NCBI GenBank assembly: GCA_050124795.1 | Contig: JASFEO010000015.1 | Span: 1-30,432 of the forward strand | Direction of reading: 5' to 3' | Origin: Candidatus Pacearchaeota archaeon | Lineage (GTDB): Archaea; Nanobdellota; Nanobdellia; Pacearchaeales; GW2011-AR1 | Length of the DNA stretch: 30,432 nucleotides | In this document: piece by piece, positions 195 to 28,000 of the stretch | How the letters are laid out: every line of letters begins with the position of its first letter | Position numbering within the stretch: position 1 is the first letter of the stretch | Program-made: the position numbers and the translations under genes | The notes under the pieces: model-generated | Told to the model about the DNA's origin: nothing | The model's database searches: none | Seen by the model: the letters and a program-made list of their open reading frames with translations, nothing else

Positions 195-1751
195 ATGCCA
201 AAAGAATTTTTAAAAAATATAACTCCAAGAGAATATCAGCAAAAAATTTTTTCTTCATGCATTGACAAAAATTGTTTAGTTGTTTTGCCAACGGGAATTG
301 GAAAAACTCTCATTGCTCTAATGCTTGCAATCGAAAGAATAAAAAAATTTCCCACACAAAAAATTCTTTTTCTCGCCCCAACAAAACCATTAGCTGAACA
401 GCACCTGAATTATTTTAAAAAATATTTGCCAGAACTTTTTTGCGAAATTGAACTTTTCACAGGAGCAGTTAATTCAAAAAAAAGAAAAAAAATTTTCCAG
501 ACTGCAGATATTATTTTCTCAACTCCGCAGTGCATTGCAAATGATTTAAAGAAAAAACTTTACAATTTAGAAAATATAAGTTTATTAATCGAAGATGAAG
601 CCCACAGATGCACAAAAAATTATGATTATAATTATATTGCAAGAGTTTACAACCGTGAGGCAAAAAATAAAAGAGTTTTAGGTTTAACAGCATCGCCGGG
701 AAGTGAGACAGAAAAAATAAAAGAAATTTGCAGGAATTTGTTTATAGATGCAGTCGAAATAAGAACAAGGGATTCTGAAGATGTGCGGGAATATTTGCAG
801 GAATTAAAATTTGAAAAAATCGAAGTTGCCTTTCCTGCAGAATTTGAAGAAATGCGTTATATGTTAAATAAACTCTATAACCAATACATTGAAGAATTAA
901 AAAAAAGAAAAGTTCTCTTCGGAATTATCAACAAAACAAGACTCCTTAAACTGCAAAAAGAAATTTCTTCAAGTCTTGCAAGAGGAAACAGAAACTTCAA
1001 TTATATGCTTGCGGCTTCAGCATGCGCTCAGGCAATAAAACTCCAGCATGCAATTGAATTATTAGAAACCCAAACACTCTCGAGCCTCAATAAATATTTA
1101 AAAAATTTATTTAATCAGGCTGCAAAAAAACAATCAAAAGGCGTTGTAAAATTAGTTGCAAAACCAGAATTTAATTTTTTGTTTATGAATTCAAATGAAT
1201 TATTAGCAAAAGAAAAAGAACATCCAAAGATTGAAAAGTTATATGAAATAATAAAAAATGATTTCTCGCAAAGCGAGAAATTAAAAATTATTGTCTTCAC
1301 GCAATTCAGAGATACTGCCACAGCAATTTCAAAAAGATTAAATAAAATTGAAAATGTAAATGCAAAAGTTTTTGTAGGACAAGCAAAAAAAGCAGACACT
1401 GGTTTATCGCAAAAAGAGCAAAAACAAATGATTGAAGAATTCTCCGACGGCAAAATCAATGTTCTTGTCGCGACTTCAATTGCAGAAGAAGGCCTTGACA
1501 TACCCGAAGTTAATGCAGTAATTTTTTATGAACCAATTCCCTCAGCAATTCGCGCAATTCAAAGAGCAGGCAGAACCGCAAGATTAATGAAAGGAAAACT
1601 AATTATCCTAATCACAAAAAACACACGGGATGAATCTTATTATTATGTCTCACGCGCCCGAGAGAAAAAAATGGCTTCAGCAATTTCTTCTGTAAAAAAA
1701 GATTTGGAAAATGGAAAATTAGAAAAAGAAGAGAAGCAGAAGAGATTGTAA
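195..1751 (+). CDS. hef: Hef/FANCM-type (ERCC4-related) SF2 DEAH helicase, helicase-only form
   Basis: Q motif PREYQ, motif I LPTGIGKT, LAPTKPL, DEAH, GLTASPG, VATSIAEEGLDIP, IQRAGRTAR. There is no C-terminal nuclease domain. Confidence 0.9.
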   Translation: MPKEFLKNITPREYQQKIFSSCIDKNCLVVLPTGIGKTLIALMLAIERIKKFPTQKILFLAPTKPLAEQHLNYFKKYLPELFCEIELFTGAVNSKKRKKIFQTADIIFSTPQCIANDLKKKLYNLENISLLIEDEAHRCTKNYDYNYIARVYNREAKNKRVLGLTASPGSETEKIKEICRNLFIDAVEIRTRDSEDVREYLQELKFEKIEVAFPAEFEEMRYMLNKLYNQYIEELKKRKVLFGIINKTRLLKLQKEISSSLARGNRNFNYMLAASACAQAIKLQHAIELLETQTLSSLNKYLKNLFNQAAKKQSKGVVKLVAKPEFNFLFMNSNELLAKEKEHPKIEKLYEIIKNDFSQSEKLKIIVFTQFRDTATAISKRLNKIENVNAKVFVGQAKKADTGLSQKEQKQMIEEFSDGKINVLVATSIAEEGLDIPEVNAVIFYEPIPSAIRAIQRAGRTARLMKGKLIILITKNTRDESYYYVSRAREKKMASAISSVKKDLENGKLEKEEKQKRL

Positions 1752-1804: not shown

Positions 1805-2368
1805 ATGAAAGAAGGATTTTCTAAAATAACTATTTCCGGAATGCCTGGTTCTGGGAAAACTACTCTTGCAAAAAACTTAGCTAAAATATTGGGATACGAA
1901 TTTATTTCAATTGGCAACCTCCAAGGTTTAACTGCAGAGAAATTAGGAATGACAATCAATAAATACATGGAACTCTCAAAACAAAAACCCGAATTACACA
2001 AAGAAATGGATAAAGTGACAACAGAGATTGGAAAAACAAAAAACAAAATAGTTGTTGAGGGTTGGGCAGCATACTATTTTATTCCTGATTCAAAAAAAAT
2101 TTATTTATATGCCAATGAAAAAATTGCTGCAGAAAGAATATTCAAAAACCAAAGACCTGATGAACCAAAATACAAAACTGAAAAAGAAGCAAGAATAAAA
2201 ACCAGGATAAGATATGAAACTTCAAAACAAGGAATTCAAAAAGCCCATGGAATTGACATTTCAGCTCTTTCAAATTTTGATTTAATTTTAAATGTATCAA
2301 ACAGAGATGAAAAACAAACTTTAGACAGGATACTCAAAAAAATTAAACAATACCAAAACAGAATATAA
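1805..2368 (+). CDS. cmk: Archaeal cytidylate kinase-like (Cmk/COG1102) P-loop nucleotide kinase, divergent
   Basis: ITISGMPGSGKTT P-loop, then AEKLGM, VVEG, ERI and GID...FDL segments typical of archaeal Cmk. Several usually conserved arginines are replaced. Confidence 0.72.
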   Translation: MKEGFSKITISGMPGSGKTTLAKNLAKILGYEFISIGNLQGLTAEKLGMTINKYMELSKQKPELHKEMDKVTTEIGKTKNKIVVEGWAAYYFIPDSKKIYLYANEKIAAERIFKNQRPDEPKYKTEKEARIKTRIRYETSKQGIQKAHGIDISALSNFDLILNVSNRDEKQTLDRILKKIKQYQNRI

Positions 2369-2402: not shown

Positions 2403-3455
2403 ATGCCTGTTGATATAGTTCTTGGAGGTCAGGGAGGAGATGAAGGAAAAGGAAAAATTGCAGAATATCTTGCACACTCAGGAAATTATGAAATAGCCTT
2501 GAGAGTTCCGTCGCCTCAGGCAGGCCATAGTGTTATGATGAATGGAAAAAGAATAGGGCTTGCAAATCTTCCAAGTGCAGTTACAAATCCTGATATAAGA
2601 CTTCTCATCGGGATTGGAGGATTGGTTTCCCTTGAAAGATTAATCCTCGGAGAAACAACTGCCCAAGGAATAAAACATAATGCAGAAATAAAAACTACAG
2701 GCATAACAAAAGAAAGACTGGGAATTGACTATAATACTAGAGTTGTAACAAGTGACCAAAGAAACAGAGAGCAAAATGATGAACATTTAATGAAAAAAAT
2801 CGGAAGCATTGGCTCAGGCACAAGCGGCTGCAGAGTTGACACAATCATGAGATACCCTGATTTAAAAAAAGCAAAAGACTTCCTTGAACTGGCCCCTTAT
2901 TTAACAGACACAAAAAAAGAATTATTTTCTGCATTAGAACAAAGAAAGAAAATATTATTAGAATCAGACCATGGAGCAAAATTAGATATGATTCACGGAG
3001 AATATCCATTCGTCACAACGCGAATTGTCAATGCAGCAGGATTTTTATCAGAAGCAGGAATTTCACCAAAAGAAGTAGAAGATGTTTACTTAGTATTAAA
3101 ACCTTATACAACAAGAGTTGCAGATGGTCCACTGGAAAACGAAATTTTTGATAAAAAAGTTTTAAATTGGACGGTTAATAAAGGTGGAGAACAGGGCTCA
3201 ATAAGTGGAAGAGACAGAAGAATAGGTTCATTTGAATGGGAAAATGTAAGCGAAGTTATAAAAATGAATGGGGCAACAAAACTAGTAATAACCCACATGG
3301 ATGCGCCGAATTATGTATGGAAAAAAATAGGATTTAAAGATGATAAAGAATTTTTAGACCAAATTAAAAATAGATTATGCAAAAAATATCCTTATCCAAA
3401 AATATCCTTATTATCCTATGGGCCAGAATTAAAAGATATAATGGAACTTAAATGA
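2403..3455 (+). CDS. purA: Adenylosuccinate synthetase-like protein (short archaeal-size PurA), divergent active site
   Basis: GDEGKGK, AGH, HGEYPFVT, YTTRVADGPL, GRDRRIG, NGATKL and SYGP motifs; 350 aa. Confidence 0.85.
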   Translation: MPVDIVLGGQGGDEGKGKIAEYLAHSGNYEIALRVPSPQAGHSVMMNGKRIGLANLPSAVTNPDIRLLIGIGGLVSLERLILGETTAQGIKHNAEIKTTGITKERLGIDYNTRVVTSDQRNREQNDEHLMKKIGSIGSGTSGCRVDTIMRYPDLKKAKDFLELAPYLTDTKKELFSALEQRKKILLESDHGAKLDMIHGEYPFVTTRIVNAAGFLSEAGISPKEVEDVYLVLKPYTTRVADGPLENEIFDKKVLNWTVNKGGEQGSISGRDRRIGSFEWENVSEVIKMNGATKLVITHMDAPNYVWKKIGFKDDKEFLDQIKNRLCKKYPYPKISLLSYGPELKDIMELK

Positions 3456-4768
3456 AAAAGATTGCAATTATCGGCGCGGGACCAGCTGGTTTTTTCGCAT
3501 CTCATGAACTTATAAAAAAAAATAATTTTGACATTACGATTTTTGATAAAGGAAAACCAATTAATAAAAGAAAGTGCTATAGAGAAGAAAAAGAAAAATG
3601 TATTGAATGCAAACCCTGCAATGTTCATTGCGGAATCGGCGGAGCAGGATTAATGTCTGATGGCAAATTATTATTCCACACAAAAATAGGAAACAACTTA
3701 GGAGAAATCCTCTCAGAAGAAGAAAACCAAGGATTAGTTGATGAAGTGGAAAAAATATTCAGAAATTATGGAATTTCGCTTCATGAAAAAAACCCAACTA
3801 AAATTCAAGAATTAAAAACAAAAAGCCTGCAAAACGGAATTGATTTTATATATTCAAAGCAGGCGCACATTGGTTCAGATAAACTTCCTGGATTAATGAC
3901 TAAAATGAAAAATAACTTAGAAGAAAAAGGAGTTCAGTTTAAAGAAAATATGGAAATAAAAAATCCGGATATTTTAAAAGGAAATTTTGATGAAATTATT
4001 ATTGCTCCCGGAAGAGGAGGATCAAGTTGGCTTGAAAAAATCTTAAAAAAACAGAGTATAGAATATAATTATAGACCAGTAGATATCGGGCTAAGAGTTG
4101 AAGTTCCAAAAGAGATAACTAACCATATAACAAACATCACAAGGGACATGAAATTTTATACCAGGTCAAAAACATTTGATGATTTAGTAAGAACTTTTTG
4201 TGTCTGCCCCGGAGGATATGTTTCCCAGGAAAATCACTCAGGATTTAATTTAGTAAATGGCCATTCTGTTTCAGGAGACCCGTCGCCAAACACAAACTTT
4301 GCAATATTAACAACAATTCCTCTTGAAGGTTCATGCACAAATGAATATGCTGAACTAATGGCAAAAATGGGAAAAGTTCTTCGAGGAGGAGATAAAATAA
4401 CAATCCAAAGATTAGGAGATTTGAAAAGGGGAAGAAAAAGTAAAAAAAGTTCAAAACACTTTTTAGAACCAACATTAAAAGAAGCAGAATGGGGGGACAT
4501 AGCTCTTGCATTGGGAGCAAGACATTACATAAATCTAATGGAAGGTCTAGAAGAATTTAATAAAATCATCCCAGGACTCACAAATGACTCTACTCTTTTA
4601 TACGCACCGGAAATGAAATTTCATGGACTTAAAATAAATACAAACAAATATTTGCAGGCAAAAAAAGGAATTTATGTAGCAGGAGACGGCTCAGGATTTA
4701 GCAGAGGAATCGTCGGAGCAGCAGCAACAGGAATTTTATGCGCTAAGGGGATTTTAAGTGAAGAATAA
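3452..4768 (+). CDS. NAD(P)/FAD-dependent oxidoreductase (COG2509-like) with an N-terminal Cys cluster
   Basis: IIGAGPAG Rossmann motif, C..C..C.PC cluster, GIGGAGLMSDGKL, VDIGLRVE, RTFCVCPGG, NGHS, AGDGSG.SRG. ATGA overlap with the purA-like stop. Confidence 0.88.
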   Translation: MKKIAIIGAGPAGFFASHELIKKNNFDITIFDKGKPINKRKCYREEKEKCIECKPCNVHCGIGGAGLMSDGKLLFHTKIGNNLGEILSEEENQGLVDEVEKIFRNYGISLHEKNPTKIQELKTKSLQNGIDFIYSKQAHIGSDKLPGLMTKMKNNLEEKGVQFKENMEIKNPDILKGNFDEIIIAPGRGGSSWLEKILKKQSIEYNYRPVDIGLRVEVPKEITNHITNITRDMKFYTRSKTFDDLVRTFCVCPGGYVSQENHSGFNLVNGHSVSGDPSPNTNFAILTTIPLEGSCTNEYAELMAKMGKVLRGGDKITIQRLGDLKRGRKSKKSSKHFLEPTLKEAEWGDIALALGARHYINLMEGLEEFNKIIPGLTNDSTLLYAPEMKFHGLKINTNKYLQAKKGIYVAGDGSGFSRGIVGAAATGILCAKGILSEE

Positions 4769-5087: not shown

Positions 5088-5777
5088 ATGAAAACTATTC
5101 ACAACATCTTCTCAACTGAGAAAATTATTTCAAAACCAAAAAAAGAACCTCCGAAGGAATCAATTATTATTGACTATCGCGAGAAAAATTCCTTGGTTGC
5201 TTCAGAACTTGTTTCATTAGGTTTTAAAATAAAATTCAAAGAATTAAAAGTTGCTGACTATATTATTAAAGACACTGCAATTGAGAGAAAAACAGTAAAT
5301 GATTTTTTGTCTTCAATGATTAACCATCGATTAATCAACCAACTCGAAGAACTCAAACAATATGAAAAAAAATTATTGCTAATTGAGGGAATAGATGAAC
5401 AGGAATTATATAATGATGAAAATAAAAAAATAAATGCAAATTCAATTCGCGGCTTTCTCCTATCGATTGCATTAAAACATAAAGTGCCGATAATTTTTAC
5501 AAAAGACTATTGCGACACTGCGAAATTCATTGAACTTATTGCAAGAAAAAAACAAACAAACTTTGGAATAAGACCAAACAAAAAAACTAAAAATAAATCT
5601 GAACAAATACAATTTATTCTCGAAGGCTTTCCAGGAATCGGCCCAACTCTTGCAAAAAAATTATTAACTGAATTTGGAAATTTAAAAAACATTTTCAATG
5701 CAAATTCTAAAGAACTTGAAAAATCAATCGGCAAAAAAGGAGAAATAATCAATAAAATTCTTGAGATAAAATATTAA
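5088..5777 (+). CDS. xpf: ERCC4/XPF-family structure-specific endonuclease with C-terminal helix-hairpin-helix
   Basis: IIIDYRE, VADY, ERKTVNDF (ERKxxxD), LLIEG, and HhH motif FPGIGPTLAKKLL. Confidence 0.9.
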   Translation: MKTIHNIFSTEKIISKPKKEPPKESIIIDYREKNSLVASELVSLGFKIKFKELKVADYIIKDTAIERKTVNDFLSSMINHRLINQLEELKQYEKKLLLIEGIDEQELYNDENKKINANSIRGFLLSIALKHKVPIIFTKDYCDTAKFIELIARKKQTNFGIRPNKKTKNKSEQIQFILEGFPGIGPTLAKKLLTEFGNLKNIFNANSKELEKSIGKKGEIINKILEIKY

Positions 5778-7325: not shown

Positions 7326-8939
7326 ATGAATAAAAGAGATGAAGAGATTCTTAGAGTTCTAAAAAGAGAATTAAAAAATTTAGAAAAGATGACTTTATCA
7401 GACCCTCTTTCAAAGAAAAGAAAAATTTCACCTTTTTTTGTTTCAATAACTTTGAAAGATAGTTCATCTTATCAATCCGAATTATCAGAAGGAGCAACTA
7501 TAATAAGTCTCAAAAGAGATCCGGATATAAAAACAAGGGTTCAAATTGTAGTCGGAGACTATGGCCGTGGTTGCAAAGGAGTTATGATTAACCCTTTTTT
7601 CCCTGAAGATAGAAATTTAAACGTCTTTACAAAATTTTTAAGAAGAGATGCAAATGAATCATTTTACGAAGCTGTAAAAGAGTTACAATACAGCATAACT
7701 GATTCTATTGGAGTTCCGGATGAATTTAATTCTTTTTCCTTTTTTTCTAAAGAAAAAAAATCAAAATATTACTCTAATAAAATAAGATTTCAAATAAAAA
7801 AGATAAAAGAGATGGAAGTAATGTTAAAAGAACTTTCAAAAAAATTCATTCATCCTGAAATATATTCATCAGAAATAGGCCTTAAAGCGAATAAAACAAG
7901 GAGATATTTTATTAATTCAGAAGGAACAGAAATTGTAGATGATTGCCTTACTTCATGTATAAATCTTGAAGCAATTGTAAGAGATGAAACTAACCTACTC
8001 CTAGAAAATGGGAAAACATTCAATGTTAGGGATCCAAAGAATTTTCCATCAAAAGAAAATCTAGAAAAAACAATAAAAAATATAATTAAGGAATCAATTA
8101 AAATAAAAAACTCCCCGATTCAGGAGGCAGGAATCTATCCAACCTTAATGGATGGAATAAATTGTATAGTTAATTGGCATGAAGCGATTGGTCATGGATT
8201 AGAGGCTCAAAGAACTTCTGATGATGAGGATGAGGATGAAGATAACAGAGATTTAACTTTTTATAAAAAAATAGGAGAAAGAATAGCCCCGGATTTCATA
8301 AAAGTTACTGAGAACCCGCGATTAAAAGGTTATTATGGTAGCTATGAATATGATGAAGAAGGAATTCCTTCGCAAGAAACAATCTTAGTAGAAAATGGAA
8401 TTCTAAAAAATTATTTGCATTCAAGGTCTACTACGGGAAAATTTACAAAAAAATATAAAATAAAAACAAAATCAAATGGACATTCAAGGTCAGAAAAAGC
8501 AGAAGACCCTGTGCCAAGAATGGGGGTACTAAAAGTTGAATCTAAAAGGGTTTTTCCCTTCAAAAAACTAAAAGAAATGTTTATTGAAGAATGTAAAAGA
8601 AAAAAAGCTCCCTATGGAATTTTACTTCAAGATACCTGGGGGGGATTCACTCTTGGGGGATATTTTAATGCATTTCCAAAAAACATTTTTAAGGTATATC
8701 AAAATGGAAAAACAGAACGTGTAAGAGGAATTTACATTTCTAGTACACCTTATCAATTGCTAGAAAAAATAGAAGCAACTTCAGACGAATATAGCGTCTC
8801 TGAAGGACATTGCGGAGCAGAATCAGGGACAGTTCCATTTACAGGGATCGGTCAAGATGCATTTTTCAAATCAGTTGAATTCGGAAGAATTCCTAGAGAA
8901 GAATATAACCAAGCCTATCCGTTACTCTTAGATATTTAA
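7326..8939 (+). CDS. tldD: TldD/PmbA-family metalloprotease (TldD-type)
   Basis: HEAIGHGLE (HExxGH), NSEGT, YDEEGIP, LVENGILKNYLHSR, NGHSR, PVPRM, C-terminal CGAESG.VP. Confidence 0.88.
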   Translation: MNKRDEEILRVLKRELKNLEKMTLSDPLSKKRKISPFFVSITLKDSSSYQSELSEGATIISLKRDPDIKTRVQIVVGDYGRGCKGVMINPFFPEDRNLNVFTKFLRRDANESFYEAVKELQYSITDSIGVPDEFNSFSFFSKEKKSKYYSNKIRFQIKKIKEMEVMLKELSKKFIHPEIYSSEIGLKANKTRRYFINSEGTEIVDDCLTSCINLEAIVRDETNLLLENGKTFNVRDPKNFPSKENLEKTIKNIIKESIKIKNSPIQEAGIYPTLMDGINCIVNWHEAIGHGLEAQRTSDDEDEDEDNRDLTFYKKIGERIAPDFIKVTENPRLKGYYGSYEYDEEGIPSQETILVENGILKNYLHSRSTTGKFTKKYKIKTKSNGHSRSEKAEDPVPRMGVLKVESKRVFPFKKLKEMFIEECKRKKAPYGILLQDTWGGFTLGGYFNAFPKNIFKVYQNGKTERVRGIYISSTPYQLLEKIEATSDEYSVSEGHCGAESGTVPFTGIGQDAFFKSVEFGRIPREEYNQAYPLLLDI

Positions 8940-8975
8940 ACCTAAACAATTATTAAAAATCCCCCTCGGAGACTT

Positions 8976-9644
8976 TCACCCAAACCATCTTTTAAGCCAA
9001 TTCAAAATCTTTCTAATCAACCCTTCACTTAAACATTCACCAGAAACACACAAATTAGTTTTGCATTCAAAATTATTTTCACATACTGAATCATCCTCGC
9101 TTTGATTAACAAACTCTAAATTCTCAGAACAATACATCCCATTTTTTCTATAACCTAAAGGATAACAAGCCTGCTCTAATAAACAACCCTGATTGCAAAC
9201 ATCAATCTCCTTAATTCCTGAATCCCCTTCTGTTTTTTTCTCATCTTCCTTAATCTCCTCTTTTTTCCCTTCCTTTAAATAAACTTCAACCTCATTAGAA
9301 TAAATTCCGCACTTGCCTCCGAGATATTCGCAAACCCGAGCATAATAAGTTCCCTCGCCGTCAAATGCTTCTAACTTATCTTCATGAGCACTCGGACTTG
9401 AATAATAATGATACTTGTCCCCGTTTCTCAATGGATAAGTTGGCGAAGAATTCCTGCTCCAAACAACCTTGAATCCCATTTTAGAATACCCTTCAGTAAT
9501 CCATTGTAATTCATTTCCCTCTGCTTTAAGAGTTATACTTGTTACACTATAAAATTCATCATCTGTTTCATCAACATGCGGCGCAATAATTCCAGGGAGT
9601 AAAACCAGAAAAAATACAAAACTAATTAATAACCACTTTTTCAT
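8976..9644 (-). CDS. Secreted/surface protein with a C-terminal Cys-rich module
   Basis: N-terminal signal peptide, beta-rich domain, charged linker, CENNFECKTNLCVSGEC, amphipathic tail (LIRKILNWLKRWFG). Confidence 0.75.
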   Translation of the reverse strand: MKKWLLISFVFFLVLLPGIIAPHVDETDDEFYSVTSITLKAEGNELQWITEGYSKMGFKVVWSRNSSPTYPLRNGDKYHYYSSPSAHEDKLEAFDGEGTYYARVCEYLGGKCGIYSNEVEVYLKEGKKEEIKEDEKKTEGDSGIKEIDVCNQGCLLEQACYPLGYRKNGMYCSENLEFVNQSEDDSVCENNFECKTNLCVSGECLSEGLIRKILNWLKRWFG

Positions 9645-9679
9645 AAACTAACTAATAAAAGATACTTTAAAAAATTTAC

Positions 9680-10129
9680 TTAAGAAAATCTTCTCTTATT
9701 AGAAAAATCCCTCGCCATTTCAAGAAACTCTTCATAACTTTTATTCCAAATTTCTTCTTCTTGTTTTTTAAATTTCTCCTTATACTCACGTTTACTCTCT
9801 AAACCCAAATAATCATTAACAGACACTTCATAACTCTCAACTAATTTATCATAAATATTAATAAAATGCTCTCCAAAAGAATCAAGACTAAATCCCCATT
9901 TCCAGTTTACCCCGATATCCATAATTTGCAAAGCAAAAATTCTATCAATTTCATCCTCATTTAAATCTCCTTGAAGAAGTTTAAAATCATTAAGCGCATA
10001 GCCATAATACCATTTTTGATATTTTCCCTGAATACCTTTTTCCCAACCTTTTTTCTTATCAATCTTTCTAAAAACCCTTTCAAGTATTTTCCTATTTTCT
10101 CCAGTCAATTTCTTAACTATATCTACCAT
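9680..10129 (-). CDS. Hypothetical protein (149 aa)
   Basis: ATG start with a TTTAAATA box upstream and typical K/E-rich composition. Confidence 0.65.
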   Translation of the reverse strand: MVDIVKKLTGENRKILERVFRKIDKKKGWEKGIQGKYQKWYYGYALNDFKLLQGDLNEDEIDRIFALQIMDIGVNWKWGFSLDSFGEHFINIYDKLVESYEVSVNDYLGLESKREYKEKFKKQEEEIWNKSYEEFLEMARDFSNKRRFS

Positions 10130-22099: not shown

Positions 22100-25000
22100 T
22101 TACCAAACCTCTGCATAAAAAACAACAGAATCTGAATTTGAATCATCATACTCTCTTAATCTTGCAGGAACTCTTAATTCATAATCATAAGTTCCATAAG
22201 CGCCTAACGAATCAGGATTCACCTTTGCAACATAAACTAAATCTTCTTTATCAGCAACATCAAACTCTCCATCAGCGTCGTCAAAACTATCCCATAAAAC
22301 TCCTGTAATAAAATTTGAATTATTAATTGAATCTGCAACAGGAACTAAAGTTAAAGTTTTTCCAAAGACAATAAAACTGCCAAAACCATTTATCTCTCCT
22401 GCCGTCGTATAAACTTCATAAACAGAATCACTTAAATCAGCCATATTAAGCAAAGAATCTATCTCGCTAAAATCATTTGATGAATTATCTCCGTTAGTTT
22501 TCTTGCCAATAGAAATTAAATCCCCCCAGGAAATACTGGACTCAGAATCTGCAACAAAAAGATTTCCGTAATTAAAATTTGTCGCATTCCATGAAATTAA
22601 TCGATCTGTTTGATTGCCTGCTAACTCATACTCGCTCGACGACAAAATATCCCCGTAAAAAAACTGCCATGAACCGATACTAATATTCTGGTTAAGCTGA
22701 TTATTTGTTTCATCAGATTCATTAAAAATATCTCCATAATCAATAGTTACAAAGATTTCATTCACTCCGATCTCTCCGGCAAACTCACTTGTTAAATAAA
22801 CAGTTTCATTTTTATCTAAATCAATAGTTTCATTCTCAATATTAATCCCTCCGCTTGAAGGATTCCCTTGATAAAACCCGACAATAACATTATTAGTATC
22901 TGCGCCCCCTAAATTTTTTACAGTTGCATTGATTAAAATAATCTCTCCCTCATAAGGGTTTGTTGCATTAAAACTAAAATTCTCAATAGTAAAATCAGGA
23001 TAGGTTAGATTGAAAAATCTTGATATACTTGTATTGGCATTCTTTAATTGGTCCCAACAAGTTACATTCCATTCATAATAACCTTCATTTAATCCTGTTA
23101 TTTTTTCTGAATGAGAAATATTGCTTGAAACCCACTGATCCTCCTCGACAACTTGCCCTCCGACAGTCAAATTGCATTGCAGCACATCATCATAAGTATC
23201 AATTGCAGTCCAATTAAAATAAACTTCTCCGTCGTTAATATCAATTCCGGACTCATTATCAGGAGAATTTAAAATAATATTCGGAGGACTTACATCGCGG
23301 ATAAAAATAAAACGGCTTGCATTTACTGCATTTGAATCAGCATCAACACAACCAACAGTCCAGTTATGAATACCTTCACTAATTCCGGAAACAGGATTAA
23401 AAGAATTTTTCTCATTCTTTGTAATATCATAATCAGTCTGATTTAAAATATCATCAATATACAAGCTGCATTCAAGCAACCCAACTGCATCCTGAGGAAG
23501 ATAACTAAAAGTTATTGTAGAATTTGTCGCAGCAGAATCATTAGAAGGGGAAATGAGATTAACTGTTGGCGGGGCAACCATGGAAAAATTTTGCTCATCA
23601 GTCAAATTAACATTCCCTGCTTCGTCCTTGCATTGCACCTGCCAACTATAATTTCCATCATTTCTCAAAACATACTGAATCTCATCTGTTCCATTAGTAA
23701 CATTAATTCCCTCTATTTCAGGATAAGAATCAATAATCAAACTGCAATTCAAATAATCATCAAGATTATCTATAACACTAAAATTAAAAGTGATATTATT
23801 CCAGGTCAAAATTTCATCCGGTTCAGGTTCATTCAAAATAACCCCGGGGATAGTTGTATCAACATAGAAATTTCTTTCTCCATCTGTTCCTGACAAAGAA
23901 GTATCATCAATACACTCAACAGTCCAGTTATGCAATCCCTCTTCAACGTTAAGTGTAAAATTGTTCAATGCCCCGTTCTCGACTGCAGAAGAATTTGTCT
24001 GATTTAAAATTCCATTTATATACAATGAACAATTTACTATGTTATTATCTCCGTCATAAACATTATAAGTAAAAGTAATATTTGAATAATTCATCCAGGT
24101 ATTATTATCAGGCTGATCAAGACTGACTCCCGGAGCTTCATAATTTGTAAAATTTCTTGTCTCACTGGTATTAGCTGTTCCAACATTATCCCAGCATGTA
24201 ACATTCCAAAAATGAACTCCCGGCGAAATAGAATTCACCCTGTTAGTTAAATTCCCATCGAGCACACTAAAATTTGAATCAACCACCTCGGAATCAACAG
24301 TTAAATTACAGGACATATTCGGAGAAAGATTATCTGTAACTGTAAAATTAAATTCAACATTTCCTGAAAAAACATCATCTCCATCAAGAGGTGTAGACAG
24401 ATTTATTAAAGGCGCCACATTATCCCGATAAGCAGTTCTTGATTCAGATGCATAACCAGTCAAGCCGTAAAGATCAGAACACTCAATAGTCCAATTATAA
24501 ATTCCATTTCCAAAATCATTAACTACAAACTCATTCAAATCCCCCTTCATAATCTCAGTTTCATTAGTTCTGTTAAAAGCCCCGTCAATAATTAAAGAAC
24601 AATTCTTCAAATCACTATTGTCATCAGGAGTATACTCAAACTGCAAATTTTCATAAAACCAGGAATCATTAGCAGTATTCAAAACAATATTCGGAACCTC
24701 TTCAATTGTTAAATCTCTTGTTTCACTAGTGTTAACATTCCCCGCCTCATCAGTACAGGTTATATTCCAATTCTGCTCCCCGTCAGTAAGGTTATAAACT
24801 CCTCGGTTAGTCAAATCCCCGCTATTAGCAGTGAAATTAACATCAACCACACTTCCTCCCACAGTCATATTGCACAATAATTCAGAATCAAGAAGATCTG
24901 TAACAGTAAAATTCAAATTCAAATCAGAAGCTGAAGAAACAAACTCATCGTCGGGTAAATTCAAATCAATGCTGGGGGGGGTTGTATCGATATAGATAGC

Positions 25001-28000
25001 TCTCTTCCCTGTCAAAGAACTTAAATTTGCATTATCAGTACAATTAACACTCCAATTATATCCTGAATCAGCAAAACCACTTAAACTAAAATTATTAACC
25101 TCCCCTTCAACAATCGCACTTGTATTAGTTGAATTAAAAACATCATTAATATAAACAGAGCACTCACTTACATCCCCGTTATCAGTAACATTATATTCCA
25201 AAACAATATCACTTGAATTAACCCATGTTGAATCATTAGTCAATTGGGTTACTATCGGGGGGAAATCACTAATACTAAAATTCCTCGTAGAACTGGTATT
25301 AACATTCCCTGCCTCATCAACACAAGTTACATTCCATAAATGGTCCCCGAGATCAACACTATAACTAATCAAAGTGGAATTTCCGCTCTCCGCACTAAAA
25401 CTCTCATTCACTACAGTTTCATCAATAGTTAAATTGCAAACCAAATTTAAATCCAAATTATCTGTAACAGTAAAATTAAAATCCACATTAATCGAAGTCA
25501 AAATTTCATCAGGAACAGGATTATGCAATTCAAAAACAGGCTTTGTGGTATCAACAGTAAACGTCCTAACAGTTTCATCAGTTGCATTCAGCCCCCCGGC
25601 GTCAGTAACATTAACAGTCCAATTATAAACTCCGTCATTAAGAACAAGAGTAAAATTATTTATCTCCCCATTAAGAATTTCTGTTTCATTACTAATGTTT
25701 AGAACATCATTTAAAATCAAAGTTGAATTAATCACATTATCATTTACATCAGTTACATTATAGAATAACTCCACATTGCTTGTATTAAAGTAATAATTAG
25801 TTTCAGGAGAATACAAAATAACCTCCGGTGCCAAATTAGCATCAAGAACTTCTAAATTTCTTATATCTCCGTCATAAGATGAAGAATAACTTGAAATTCC
25901 AATGCATCTTAAATCATTAAAAGAAATGGTATTTGCCTTTAATGAAAAATTTGTATATTGCATGCTGGACACACTTCCAAGTGAATGGGGATTGCTCTCT
26001 CCTGCATCAAGACTCATATTTCCCGACGAAGTCATATCTTCCCAGGATGAACCATTATAATACTGAACATAAACATTTGTATCTGAACATGCCCCAATTG
26101 AACAATTCGCACTGCAAGTAAGATTAAAGACTTCTCCCAAATCAACAGTAGAATTAGTAGCAGGATTTGTCAAATTAACCTCCAAACTCCCCAAAAGATT
26201 AAAATCTGCAAACTGCAAAAAAGACAATCTTAAATCATCCCACGAATGAGAAAAACTCAAATTAGAAGTATCTGCATTATAAACATTGATAACTAATTTT
26301 ATTCTATCTGACTTTTTTAAAACCCAATCATAAGAAGGAGAATCACACGAACCAGTCCATGTTCCGGAGGCAGAACTAATCCTTGTTCCGCCGGTAAAAT
26401 CATCCCCATACTGACAAATTAAAGTTTCTCCTGAACTATTTTTTACATAAGCCTTCCATGTAATATAGCCAACATTATTTGTCGACGCTGTTGCATAAGC
26501 ACTAAAATCCACAAGAGTTGAAGAAGGTATAATCGCCCCGTCGTTTCCAAGATAAGGCGACAGTGCAATAGTCGTCGTGGTTAATTGACTTGGTAACAAA
26601 TCCATGCTAACACCATTCTCTGTTCCGTCTCTGTCAGCATCAAGGGAAATACTTGCTTCACTCGTAAAATCACTAATAGAAGTTTCATAAAACCGATTCT
26701 CCCAGGAATAAACATCAGGCCCGTCAATAGTAATCATCCTCTTTTCACTCGCGCCCTCAAGTCCTCCGGCATCACTGCAATTAATACTCCAATAATAAAC
26801 TCCGTCATCTAAATACACTTCAAAAAATTGAGAAATATTCATAGTAACAGAAGTATCATTCCAAACCTTTTCATCATCAATAACCAAAGAACAAACACTA
26901 ATCTCTCCGTTGTCAGTTGCATTGTATGTAAACATGACAGTATTGCTATAATTCGTTGTTTCATTCACAGGATCAAGAGATGTGACAGTAGGATAACTGG
27001 AATCAATATCAAAAACAATATTGCTTGACGAATACATTACTCCAAGAGTATCGTTGCAATAAAAAGTCACATTATGCTCACTAACACTTAATCCAGTCTC
27101 AGTATTAGAAAAATAAGTAGAATTCACACTAGACATAGTGGTATTGCTTTCCCCATCCAAAGAATAACCACACCAATCTCCCGCACTATCCAAACTAACA
27201 TTAAAATCAATAGTTGTATCAGAATATGTTTGCTCAAGAGGAGAAACCACAGTCAAAAAAGTTACAGGTGCCTCGCCAATTTCCACAACAAACCATTCCA
27301 CATCCTGAGTCTGAGTCGGAGTCCCTTTTAAAAATCTCAGATTTGTCTCACTAGTTAAAGAGTTAACTAAAAAAGCATTAGCAAAAGTTGTTCCGCCGCC
27401 AGTGCTGTCGTGCGACTCAAGTGAAAAAGTCTGATTTAACTGAACAGAACTTATTGTTTCATCAACTGCAGAAGAACCTGATACGCTCCTTGAACCGCTC
27501 TGAACATAAAACTGGTCTTTCTCAACAACAAAATACTCAATCTCATAAGTTACTGATCCGCCGTTTTTTGAGAACTCAATATCATCTTCATCAACAAAAT
27601 AACCTCTAAAATGAGTGTCCTGCAAAGAAGTTGCTCCGCTAATAGCCCGTGAAAACAACAAAAAACTCCTTGAAGTATTCACAGAAGTTCCAAGAGTATC
27701 AGAAGGAGTTGTTCCGGAACCCGATAAAGATCCTGACTGAACAAATGCCTCATCCCATTCAATCGCCTGATAATGAAGTTCCCCCGCTGTTCCGGTTGTT
27801 CCCCTTGAAAAATCAAGACCAGTAGTTCCACCATACTCAACTGTCCAAAAACCCCTTACATTCTCAGAAGTTGTTCCGGAATTAAGCCGATTGCTCACAG
27901 TTGCAAAACTCTCACTCAAATCAACTGAATTTATCGTCGCAGACTCACTTCCAGAAGAAGTACCATACTCAACATTTCCTCTTTGAACATAAATATCCGG

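Follow-up and report, generated by a model that had tools for sequence, protein, structure and literature searches.

A conserved subfamily of short DPANN PurA with altered IMP-pocket residues is encoded next to a COG2509 flavoprotein

Positions 1 to 30,432 of contig JASFEO010000015.1 (Candidatus Pacearchaeota archaeon, assembly GCA_050124795.1), the whole stretch of 30,432 nucleotides analysed here and called the window below, carry a gene for a PurA-like ligase followed by a gene for a protein dependent on flavin adenine dinucleotide (FAD). The first, an ATG-to-TGA open reading frame (ORF) at 2403..3455 on the + strand, encodes 350 amino acids of the short archaeal PurA type. The second (3452..4768, +) encodes a COG2509-type protein of 438 amino acids, recognised by PF21688 (49.6 bits against a cut-off of 27). 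Stop and start codons overlap in an ATGA (3452..3455, +), an arrangement suggestive of translational coupling. The G+C content of the window is about 31%, and the closest named relatives of its proteins are in metagenome-assembled genomes of Woesearchaeota, Pacearchaeota and Nanoarchaeota, which marks the source as a DPANN archaeon. The source genome (G000) comprises 1.06 Mb in 38 contigs, with a completeness estimate of 90%.

The PurA-like protein matches PF00709 with 173.1 bits (E 1.1e-50, gathering cut-off 27). With NF003295, the NCBIfam equivalog model for adenylosuccinate synthetase (AdSS) of the short archaeal type, it scores 267.9 and does not reach the curated cut-off of 368. Its best sequence match in the PDB is P. 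horikoshii PurA (2d7u/5k7x, 177.5 bits), with weaker matches to PurZ0 (7vf6, 75.3 bits) and PurZ (6fm1, 62.9 bits; 7odx, 44 bits). AlphaFold2, run on an alignment of 29 rows, gave a model with a predicted local distance difference test score (pLDDT) of 89.8, falling to 67-68 just past the ESDHG motif discussed below; the best Foldseek match of this model is again 5k7x (E 2.5e-31, template modelling (TM) score 0.81/0.84); the protein thus has the PurA fold.

We number residues as in E. coli PurA (L003:2688-3986) without Met1 and give the window-protein residue in brackets. The catalytic set D13, K16 and H41 (H42) is complete in the alignment, and E14, R143 (R150), T239 (T205), V273 (V239), R303 (R270), R305 (R272), D333 (D300) and S414 (S338) are also retained. 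Altered are W11 (G11), N38 (Q39), T42 (S43), T128/T129 (S135/I136), G222/A223/Q224 (S188/D189/H190), T300/T301 (I267/S268), R304 (D271) and K331 (H298). A first-pass annotation of this DNA had listed D13, H41, R143, T239 and R303/R305 as kept and QWGD to QGGD, NAGH to QAGH, GTTG to GSIG and EGAQG to ESDHG as changed; each of these residues and all four motif changes are seen in our alignment. In E. coli PurA we take N38, T129, T239 and R143, the last from the other subunit, to contact the 5'-phosphate, Q224 and D13 to contact the base, and H41 and K16 to act in phosphoryl transfer; V273, S301, R303 and R305 we take to form the 2'-OH and aspartate sites, and D333 and S414 the guanine sites. Three positions that contact inosine 5'-monophosphate (IMP), N38, T129 and Q224, are not kept; the 5'-phosphate/ribose ligand positions R143, T239 and R303 and the guanine-specificity positions D333 and S414 are.

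All of these motifs lie on the + strand. The P-loop QGGDEGKG (2430..2453) has lost W11 and kept D13 and K16; the QAGHS motif (2517..2531) joins Q39 and S43 to the catalytic histidine; GSI (2802..2810) holds S135 and I136; and ESDHGAKLD (2961..2987) holds D189, where PurA has A or T, and H190. In the aspartate loop GSISGRDR (3195..3218), I267-S268-G-R270-D271-R272 stands against T300-T301-G-R303-x-R305; T301S is conservative, and V or I at position 300 is also present in P. horikoshii PurA. R303 is given as a ribose/Asp ligand by Czernecki et al. 2021 (PMC8342488). The guanine motif THMD (3291..3302) has H298 for K331 and keeps D333 as D300. As judged from the side chains, N38Q would keep the amide and Q224H a hydrogen-bond donor, and residue 223, as the sequence neighbour of 224, probably points away from the latter's side.

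Homologues were collected with a word-index search (562 at E ≤1e-5) and a full HMMER scan (5,989 at E ≤0.001). Sequences of 300-480 amino acids, with near-duplicates thinned to 200 rows, went into a FastTree tree, and 62 chosen rows into an IQ-TREE tree (LG+C20 PMSF; supports given as ultrafast bootstrap (UFBoot)/SH-aLRT). FastTree unites the short archaeal-type family (143 rows, support 100), and within it the Ser13, PurZ-type sequences form one clade of 53 rows. A separate clade of 65 rows (support 99) has G/A11, V/I129, S301 and H331. It consists of a 12-row branch with N38/T223/Q224, mostly from Elusimicrobia, and a 53-row branch along which the remaining changes arise stepwise: D223 first (52 rows, support 99), Q38 next, then H224 (41 rows, support 98). 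IQ-TREE recovers the D223 clade with 100/99 and the Q38/D223/H224 clade with 97/88, the latter nested with Elusimicrobia PurA in a 35-row group (100/100), and it separates the PurZ clade (8 rows, 100/96) from the window protein. The first-pass annotation was therefore right to set the protein apart from PurZ, since it keeps D13, scores 123.3 against a cut-off of 300 with NF038379, and falls outside the PurZ clade. Its suggestion that Q38/I129/H224 might mark a clade also holds, in the form Q38/(I,V)129/H224.

Q38, D223 and H224 are invariant in 41/41 rows of this clade, just as N38 and Q224 are in 12/12 sister-clade rows and 27/27 rows of canonical short PurA; outside the clade Q224H is sporadic (4/159 rows of the FastTree set). 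Thirty-eight columns are invariant among the 41 rows. Few well-conserved positions separate the window clade from its sister, namely N38Q, T42S, T223D, Q224H, T244N, R295G, I106V, V204T and two surface positions. W11G, T129V/I, T301S and K331H are already present in the Elusimicrobia sister clade, and since W11G and T129V/I are shared with these purB-linked proteins, only N38Q and T223D/Q224H among the pocket changes are specific to the window clade. Q38/(V,I)129/D223/H224 thus marks a real, conserved and previously undescribed subfamily of DPANN PurA; a literature search found no relevant work on adenylosuccinate synthetase in DPANN or in Woese-, Pace- or Nanoarchaeota.

Compared with six clade members, the window gene shows a nonsynonymous distance (dN) of 0.33-0.56 and a synonymous distance (dS) that is saturated at ≥1.06, so that the dN/dS of at most about 0.3-0.5 is an upper bound only. 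These values support an intact PurA-fold ligase gene under purifying selection. Because 41/41 clade rows keep Q38/D223/H224 and dN lies well below the saturated dS, the clade's residues look like a constrained functional state and not the sporadic decay that the first-pass annotation had named as its own refutation. The NF003295 score steps down along the same series, from 370.2 in the sister clade (L043) through 340.6 in a D223/Q224 intermediate (L028) to that of the window protein.

Within the sister clade, the short PurA of Elusimicrobium posterum (L043, NZ_CP152277) resembles the window protein in G/A11, V129, S301 and H331. It differs in keeping N38, T223 and Q224, in adjoining purB and in reaching the AdSS cut-off. 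In five Elusimicrobia genomes (G126-G130; G128 is the complete E. posterum chromosome) the short PurA gene has purB as its immediate neighbour, and a PF00709 search of three of them (G126, G128, G129) matched no gene other than the short PurA. By this genomic context it appears to be the organism's working PurA.

P. horikoshii PurA (PH0438; 2D7U, 5K7X) is like the window protein in length (339 against 350 amino acids), in fold and in D13/K16/H41, R143, T239, R303 and D333, and it likewise lacks K331, with TMLD for THMD (M at position 331, where the window protein and its Elusimicrobia sisters have H). It retains W11, N38, T128-T129 and T223-Q224, against G, Q, S-I and D-H in the window protein, and the two share only about 34% identity; the window protein lies below the NF003295 cut-off. 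E. coli PurA (EC 6.3.4.4; 1ADE, 1CG0) belongs to the same family and has the same catalytic residues; it differs in being of the long bacterial type (432 amino acids; 20-22% identity in the fold alignment), in its canonical W11, N38, T129, Q224 and K331, and in being partnered by PurB. The phage enzymes PurZ and PurZ0, succino-aminodeoxyadenylate synthases dependent on deoxyguanosine 5'-monophosphate (6FM1, 7ODX, 7VF6), belong to the same short archaeal-type radiation, and Czernecki et al. 2021 (PMC8342488) also put the origin of PurZ near archaeal PurA. Unlike the window protein, which keeps D13 and R303, PurZ has Ser at D13 with N38/T129/Q224 kept, and often K for R303 and F/G/H for K331; its setting is a phage genome with the dATP- or dGTP-handling helpers DatZ/MazZ, whereas that of the window gene is cellular (Hef helicase, cytidine monophosphate (CMP) kinase, flavoprotein, XPF).

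A PurZ-type homologue does occur in a relative from the same GTDB family (90% complete), at L124 (G088:C5:30000-48000; ORF 8695-9717, +). It has the P-loop GLQWGSEGKGK with Ser at D13 and falls within the PurZ clade in the trees. Its gene lies between those for the PolD subunits DP2 and DP1, beside genes for an HTH-NUDIX protein and Cdc6/Orc1, and a PurZ-like gene in such a cellular replication core could serve 2-aminoadenine or other editing of the deoxynucleoside triphosphate pool in the cell.

The partner of the window gene is modelled with confidence (AlphaFold2 pLDDT 90.9) and has a Cys-rich stretch near residues 41-61, which may be the site of a metal or Fe-S centre. Its only close structure is VP0956 of Vibrio parahaemolyticus (3NLC; COG2509/PF21688), found with Foldseek (E 4.8e-24, TM 0.76) and as the only match of a PDB sequence search (phmmer, 66 bits); all other Foldseek matches have TM <0.5. 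VP0956 differs by an extra N-terminal domain of about 105 amino acids. An NCBIfam scan gave generic Rossmann matches only, the ESM Atlas only clusters of 'uncharacterised FAD-dependent' proteins, and a phage collection only unannotated faecal contigs; two plasmid contexts of homologues held no functional clue, and a search of titles and abstract beginnings found no paper on the function of COG2509, 3NLC, VP0956 or K07137. The family is large, with 5,744 matches at E ≤1e-10 among 7,999 candidates scored, and is present in 7/14 control genomes.

Next to PurA the flavoprotein gene recurs. In all eight distinct DPANN genomes with the window clade (loci L006, L007 = L022, L008 = L023, L009 = L089, L010, L024, L025 and L026) it lies directly downstream on the same strand, with a 127-amino-acid ORF intervening in one. 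Sixteen more pairs perhaps share contigs, as indicated indirectly by contigs of identical size in both homologue lists. Outside DPANN the flavoprotein gene follows PurA at four Elusimicrobia loci among the 74 retrieved: L027 and L028, with PurA of the D223/Q224 type, and L035 and L096, which belong to the sister clade and have the order purB-purA-flavoprotein. In a sample of 151 Elusimicrobiota genomes the flavoprotein was found in two alone, both times directly after PurA. In a FastTree tree of 132 rows the L027/L028 flavoproteins nest among DPANN copies, which makes it probable that the PurA and flavoprotein genes crossed between the domains as a pair. The PurA-linked flavoproteins do not form a clade of their own in this tree, so that the flavoprotein is not specialised for window-type PurA; one linked flavoprotein has the unlinked G085 copy as its sister, and none of the 38 rows of one DPANN subclade could be matched by contig to a PurA-like protein.

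We then considered the phylum as a whole, in a sample of 401 genomes each at least 90% complete. A PurA homologue is encoded in 124 of these, PF21688 in 47, and a purB match (E ≤1e-30) was obtained in 118. The flavoprotein is commoner in genomes with PurA (25/124) than in those without (22/277), a naive odds ratio of 2.9 that is uncorrected for relatedness, and in 11/25 genomes with both, that of the window included, the two genes are neighbours. The ten other neighbouring pairs span four GTDB families, and in all of them (10/10) the PurA is of the long, bacterial type, with N38, T129 and Q224 in 8/10. Their arrangements vary: purB-purA-flavoprotein in G350; flavoprotein then purA, with overlapping codons, in G538 and G322; divergent genes in G579, G452 and G640; and one gene between the two in G536, G504, G557 and G520. 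A link that persists through so many rearrangements argues for a function shared with PurA in general and not for a new substrate in the window clade.

One set of these long PurA proteins is unusual in itself. In DPANN family f32 (L127:3443-4831, L128:2691-4079, L133:1159-2544), where the gene is flavoprotein-adjacent, NAGTTY replaces NAGHT, so that the catalytic His41 is Thr, and E221 is Q, in 3/3 sequences; purB is still next door in one genome (G520).

The enzyme that ordinarily follows PurA is PurB, which serves the SAICAR step of purine synthesis as well; it was not found in most of the clade genomes. As the first-pass annotation had noted, the window holds no purB by Pfam scans, which left eight ORFs without a Pfam match and a few short ORFs unscanned. 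In the 90%-complete genome, where that annotation had proposed to look for purB and a canonical purA, we found neither a TIGR00928 or PF00206 match nor a second PF00709 gene. TIGR00928 and PF00206 were likewise not found in the clade genomes G103, G022, G092, G121, G122 and G123; G030 has a clear PurB. Such absence is widespread: 50/124 PurA-bearing genomes of the phylum sample (about 40%) have no purB match, as is the case for 5/9 genomes with long-type PurA in a sample of the order. Orphan PurA is thus a general feature of the phylum and not only of the window clade. The three unpublished genomes in the phylum sample, G515 and G615 (PurA and PurB) and G646 (PurB only), have little bearing on this, as without them the counts of 124 PurA, 118 purB and 74 PurA genomes with purB become 122, 115 and 72, the rest being the same.

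Does the flavoprotein take the place of PurB? It is found in 15/50 purB-less and 10/74 purB-bearing PurA genomes, a difference with a naive p of 0.04 that rises to 0.37 with a stricter purB threshold; in the order sample, complementarity of PurB and flavoprotein (4/1 vs 2/5) is not significant (Fisher p 0.24). In a search of five further genomes whose PurA and flavoprotein genes adjoin (93-99% complete), none of the five proved to encode a Lyase_1 protein, and one of them, G536, is of the same genus as G520, whose purB sits between purA and the flavoprotein gene.

From these observations we infer, with slightly more confidence than doubt, that the PurA-like protein is still a ligase for IMP, aspartate and guanosine triphosphate (GTP), of a distinct conserved subfamily of short DPANN PurA, and that the second step may be other than the usual PurB. 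IMP is available as a metabolite here, as the genome encodes a full-length IMP dehydrogenase (GuaB, 483.6 bits; G000:C4:44226-45719, -). The proposed substrate is a purine ribonucleoside 5'-monophosphate, in all likelihood IMP, whose 6-oxo group would receive the γ-phosphate of GTP through the action of D13, K16 and H42; the amino group of L-aspartate would then displace the phosphate to give adenylosuccinate. N38Q, Q224H and T223D would adjust the IMP pocket but not destroy it, W11G and T129I being older changes common to a sister clade that resembles ordinary PurA. The PurA-like gene would be co-translated with that of the COG2509 flavoprotein, and since PurA of more than one kind is found with this partner in DPANN and Elusimicrobia, both proteins may act in the same branch from IMP to adenosine 5'-monophosphate (AMP).

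Four points weigh against an IMP ligase. With PurB/Lyase_1 not found in 7/8 clade genomes, adenylosuccinate would have no known fate. The replacement of invariant N38 and Q224 by invariant Q and H is the signature of a functional shift. The NF003295 score is far below the cut-off and lower than those of the D223/Q224 intermediates and even of a PurZ-like protein (291.7). Finally, the bacterium G125 (locus L028) encodes, on one contig, a D223-type gene with its flavoprotein and, 18 kb away, a canonical long purA beside purB, which suggests that its two PurA types are not redundant.

All four also speak for the alternative that the ligase keeps PurA chemistry and acts on another nucleotide, such as xanthosine 5'-monophosphate (XMP), guanosine 5'-monophosphate (GMP) or some purine nucleotide altered by deamination or modification, with the flavoprotein making that substrate or processing the product in a new nucleotide-conversion pathway; T223D, too, lies in or beside the IMP pocket, and elsewhere in DPANN the flavoprotein gene adjoins that of an XPRT-like phosphoribosyltransferase, or those of Ham1 and a methylpurine-DNA glycosylase. 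We consider this reading somewhat unlikely. In other genomes this flavoprotein is found with canonical PurA and purB, and it is therefore no marker of a new substrate; N to Q and Q to H would preserve hydrogen bonding, the 5'-phosphate and ribose ligands are kept and the aspartate ligands largely so, Q224H also turns up sporadically outside the clade, and nothing points to any particular alternative substrate. The first-pass proposal of an active PurA-fold ligase with a non-IMP substrate is supported in its first half as far as an intact PurA-fold ligase gene and purifying selection go; its second half is unsupported as it was put, with W11G and T129V/I shared with a purB-linked clade and purB-less PurA common in the phylum. 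A changed substrate is nevertheless possible, on the strength of the low NF003295 score and the extra D223-type copy in G125.

If the substrate is IMP, the flavoprotein is the leading, though unproven, candidate for the second step in the window clade, and that step may be unconventional, since the PurA-like gene is always found with the flavoprotein and usually without PurB. In the strongest form of this idea, PurA and the COG2509 flavoprotein would between them convert IMP to AMP with no need of PurB. Like L-aspartate oxidase or cytokinin oxidase, the flavoprotein would work by oxidation, here of the C-N bond in the aspartyl part of adenylosuccinate, and would release AMP and oxaloacetate instead of fumarate; the window clade would be the version of PurA tuned to this partner. 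Such a route would fit the persistence of the pair across two domains and through rearrangements, the five further genomes without Lyase_1 and the higher share of flavoprotein among purB-less PurA genomes, and would explain why DPANN PurA so often occurs without a Lyase_1 enzyme. We think it unlikely in this full form: 22/47 flavoprotein genomes have no PurA, 35/50 purB-less PurA genomes have no flavoprotein, and purB-purA-flavoprotein operons exist.

The missing purB could also mean that a lyase is unneeded, were IMP aminated directly with ammonia or a small amine in place of aspartate. E. coli PurA accepts hydroxylamine for aspartate, and the number of genomes without PurB, in the clade as in the phylum, is in line with the idea. 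It is very improbable, however, as the clade conserves its aspartate loop (G-S/T-V/I-S-G/K-R-x-R-R) no less than the purB-linked sister does and the flavoprotein is left unexplained. That the gene is a decaying or inactive relic, purine metabolism having been lost, is scarcely credible: the genome is small and lacks detectable purB, GMP_synt_C, cytidine triphosphate (CTP) synthase (PyrG) and A_deaminase, but the frame is intact with all catalytic residues kept, the clade-wide invariance and low dN noted above speak against it, the AlphaFold2 model is confident, and the gene is coupled in an operon in two domains of life. A small share of the probability goes to roles outside all these readings. 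Amination of uridine monophosphate to CMP, an idea taken from the CMP kinase neighbour and the contracted pocket, was rejected as it left no specific signal; the CTP synthase N-domain is missing in 7/8 clade genomes, but it is present in only 31/121 genomes of the order, and the CMP kinase neighbour is peculiar to this genome.

Upstream of the pair lies a gene for an archaeal (d)CMP kinase (1805..2368, +; TIGR02173, 105.4 bits against a cut-off of 102.1), found at this position only in the window's genome and absent from the related loci. Further out are a Hef-type helicase (195..1751, +; Pfam DEAD/Helicase_C and synteny) on the left and an XPF/ERCC4 nuclease with HhH (5088..5777, +; Pfam ERCC4 and synteny) on the right, and in Woesearchaeales-like genomes the PurA-like/flavoprotein module likewise stands between these two. 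We take helicase and nuclease to be a single fused Hef protein in many archaea; in the window they are split, with the CMP kinase, PurA-like and flavoprotein genes in between, and the split with an insertion recurs in the relatives L022, L024, L025, L116 and L117. Where the PurA-like gene is missing, in L116, L117 and L118, the flavoprotein keeps the Hef/XPF slot, with neighbours that include DUF7768, an XPRT-like phosphoribosyltransferase, aspartate kinase and deoxycytidine monophosphate deaminase. A small protein is encoded directly upstream of the flavoprotein in two unrelated arrangements (L116:5320-5652, -; L133:4083-4478, +); that of L116 matches DUF7768 (PF24963) and fills the slot of the PurA-like gene, and the L133 copy is similar by eye only. 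At L119 (G007:C1:223500-233000), in a genome without PurA, a methylpurine-DNA glycosylase gene starts 66 bp after the flavoprotein gene, with a gene for Ham1 (inosine/xanthosine triphosphate pyrophosphatase) nearby, which hints at a link of the flavoprotein to hypoxanthine or xanthine nucleotides.

Elsewhere in the genome, a 464-amino-acid ORF (G000:C10:17230-18624, -) appears to be an MTAP-APRT fusion, with an N-terminal half like methylthioadenosine/purine-nucleoside phosphorylase, judged by eye, and a C-terminal adenine phosphoribosyltransferase half, computed with PF00156; PF00156 ORFs of 366-480 amino acids are present in G121, G122 and G022. The large subunit of RuBisCO is also encoded. 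With IMP dehydrogenase present, XMP would also be without its usual next enzyme, as the 90%-complete genome yielded no match to the GMP_synt_C domain; nor did it yield one to A_deaminase or CTP synthase. At the far end of the window, an ORF of 2,767 amino acids (22100-30403, -) contains Big_13, CARDB and H-type lectin domains; giant proteins of the cell surface or for adhesion are common in DPANN, and this is probably one of them.

The branch from IMP to AMP, PurA followed by PurB, is textbook biochemistry and is regarded as universal. Against this background, a conserved subfamily of PurA whose IMP-pocket residues are altered is firmly tied to a flavoprotein family of wide distribution, and two outcomes are open: these symbionts have an undescribed second step, or PurA has another role in them. 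Either would give COG2509/PF21688 its first function and would revise the reconstruction of nucleotide salvage in DPANN genomes; should the enzyme be an ordinary PurA, the gain would be a modest refinement of annotation. The more interesting result is the recurrent pairing of PurA with COG2509 in lineages that often lack PurB, which makes a PurB-independent release step a testable, though in our view unlikely, idea.

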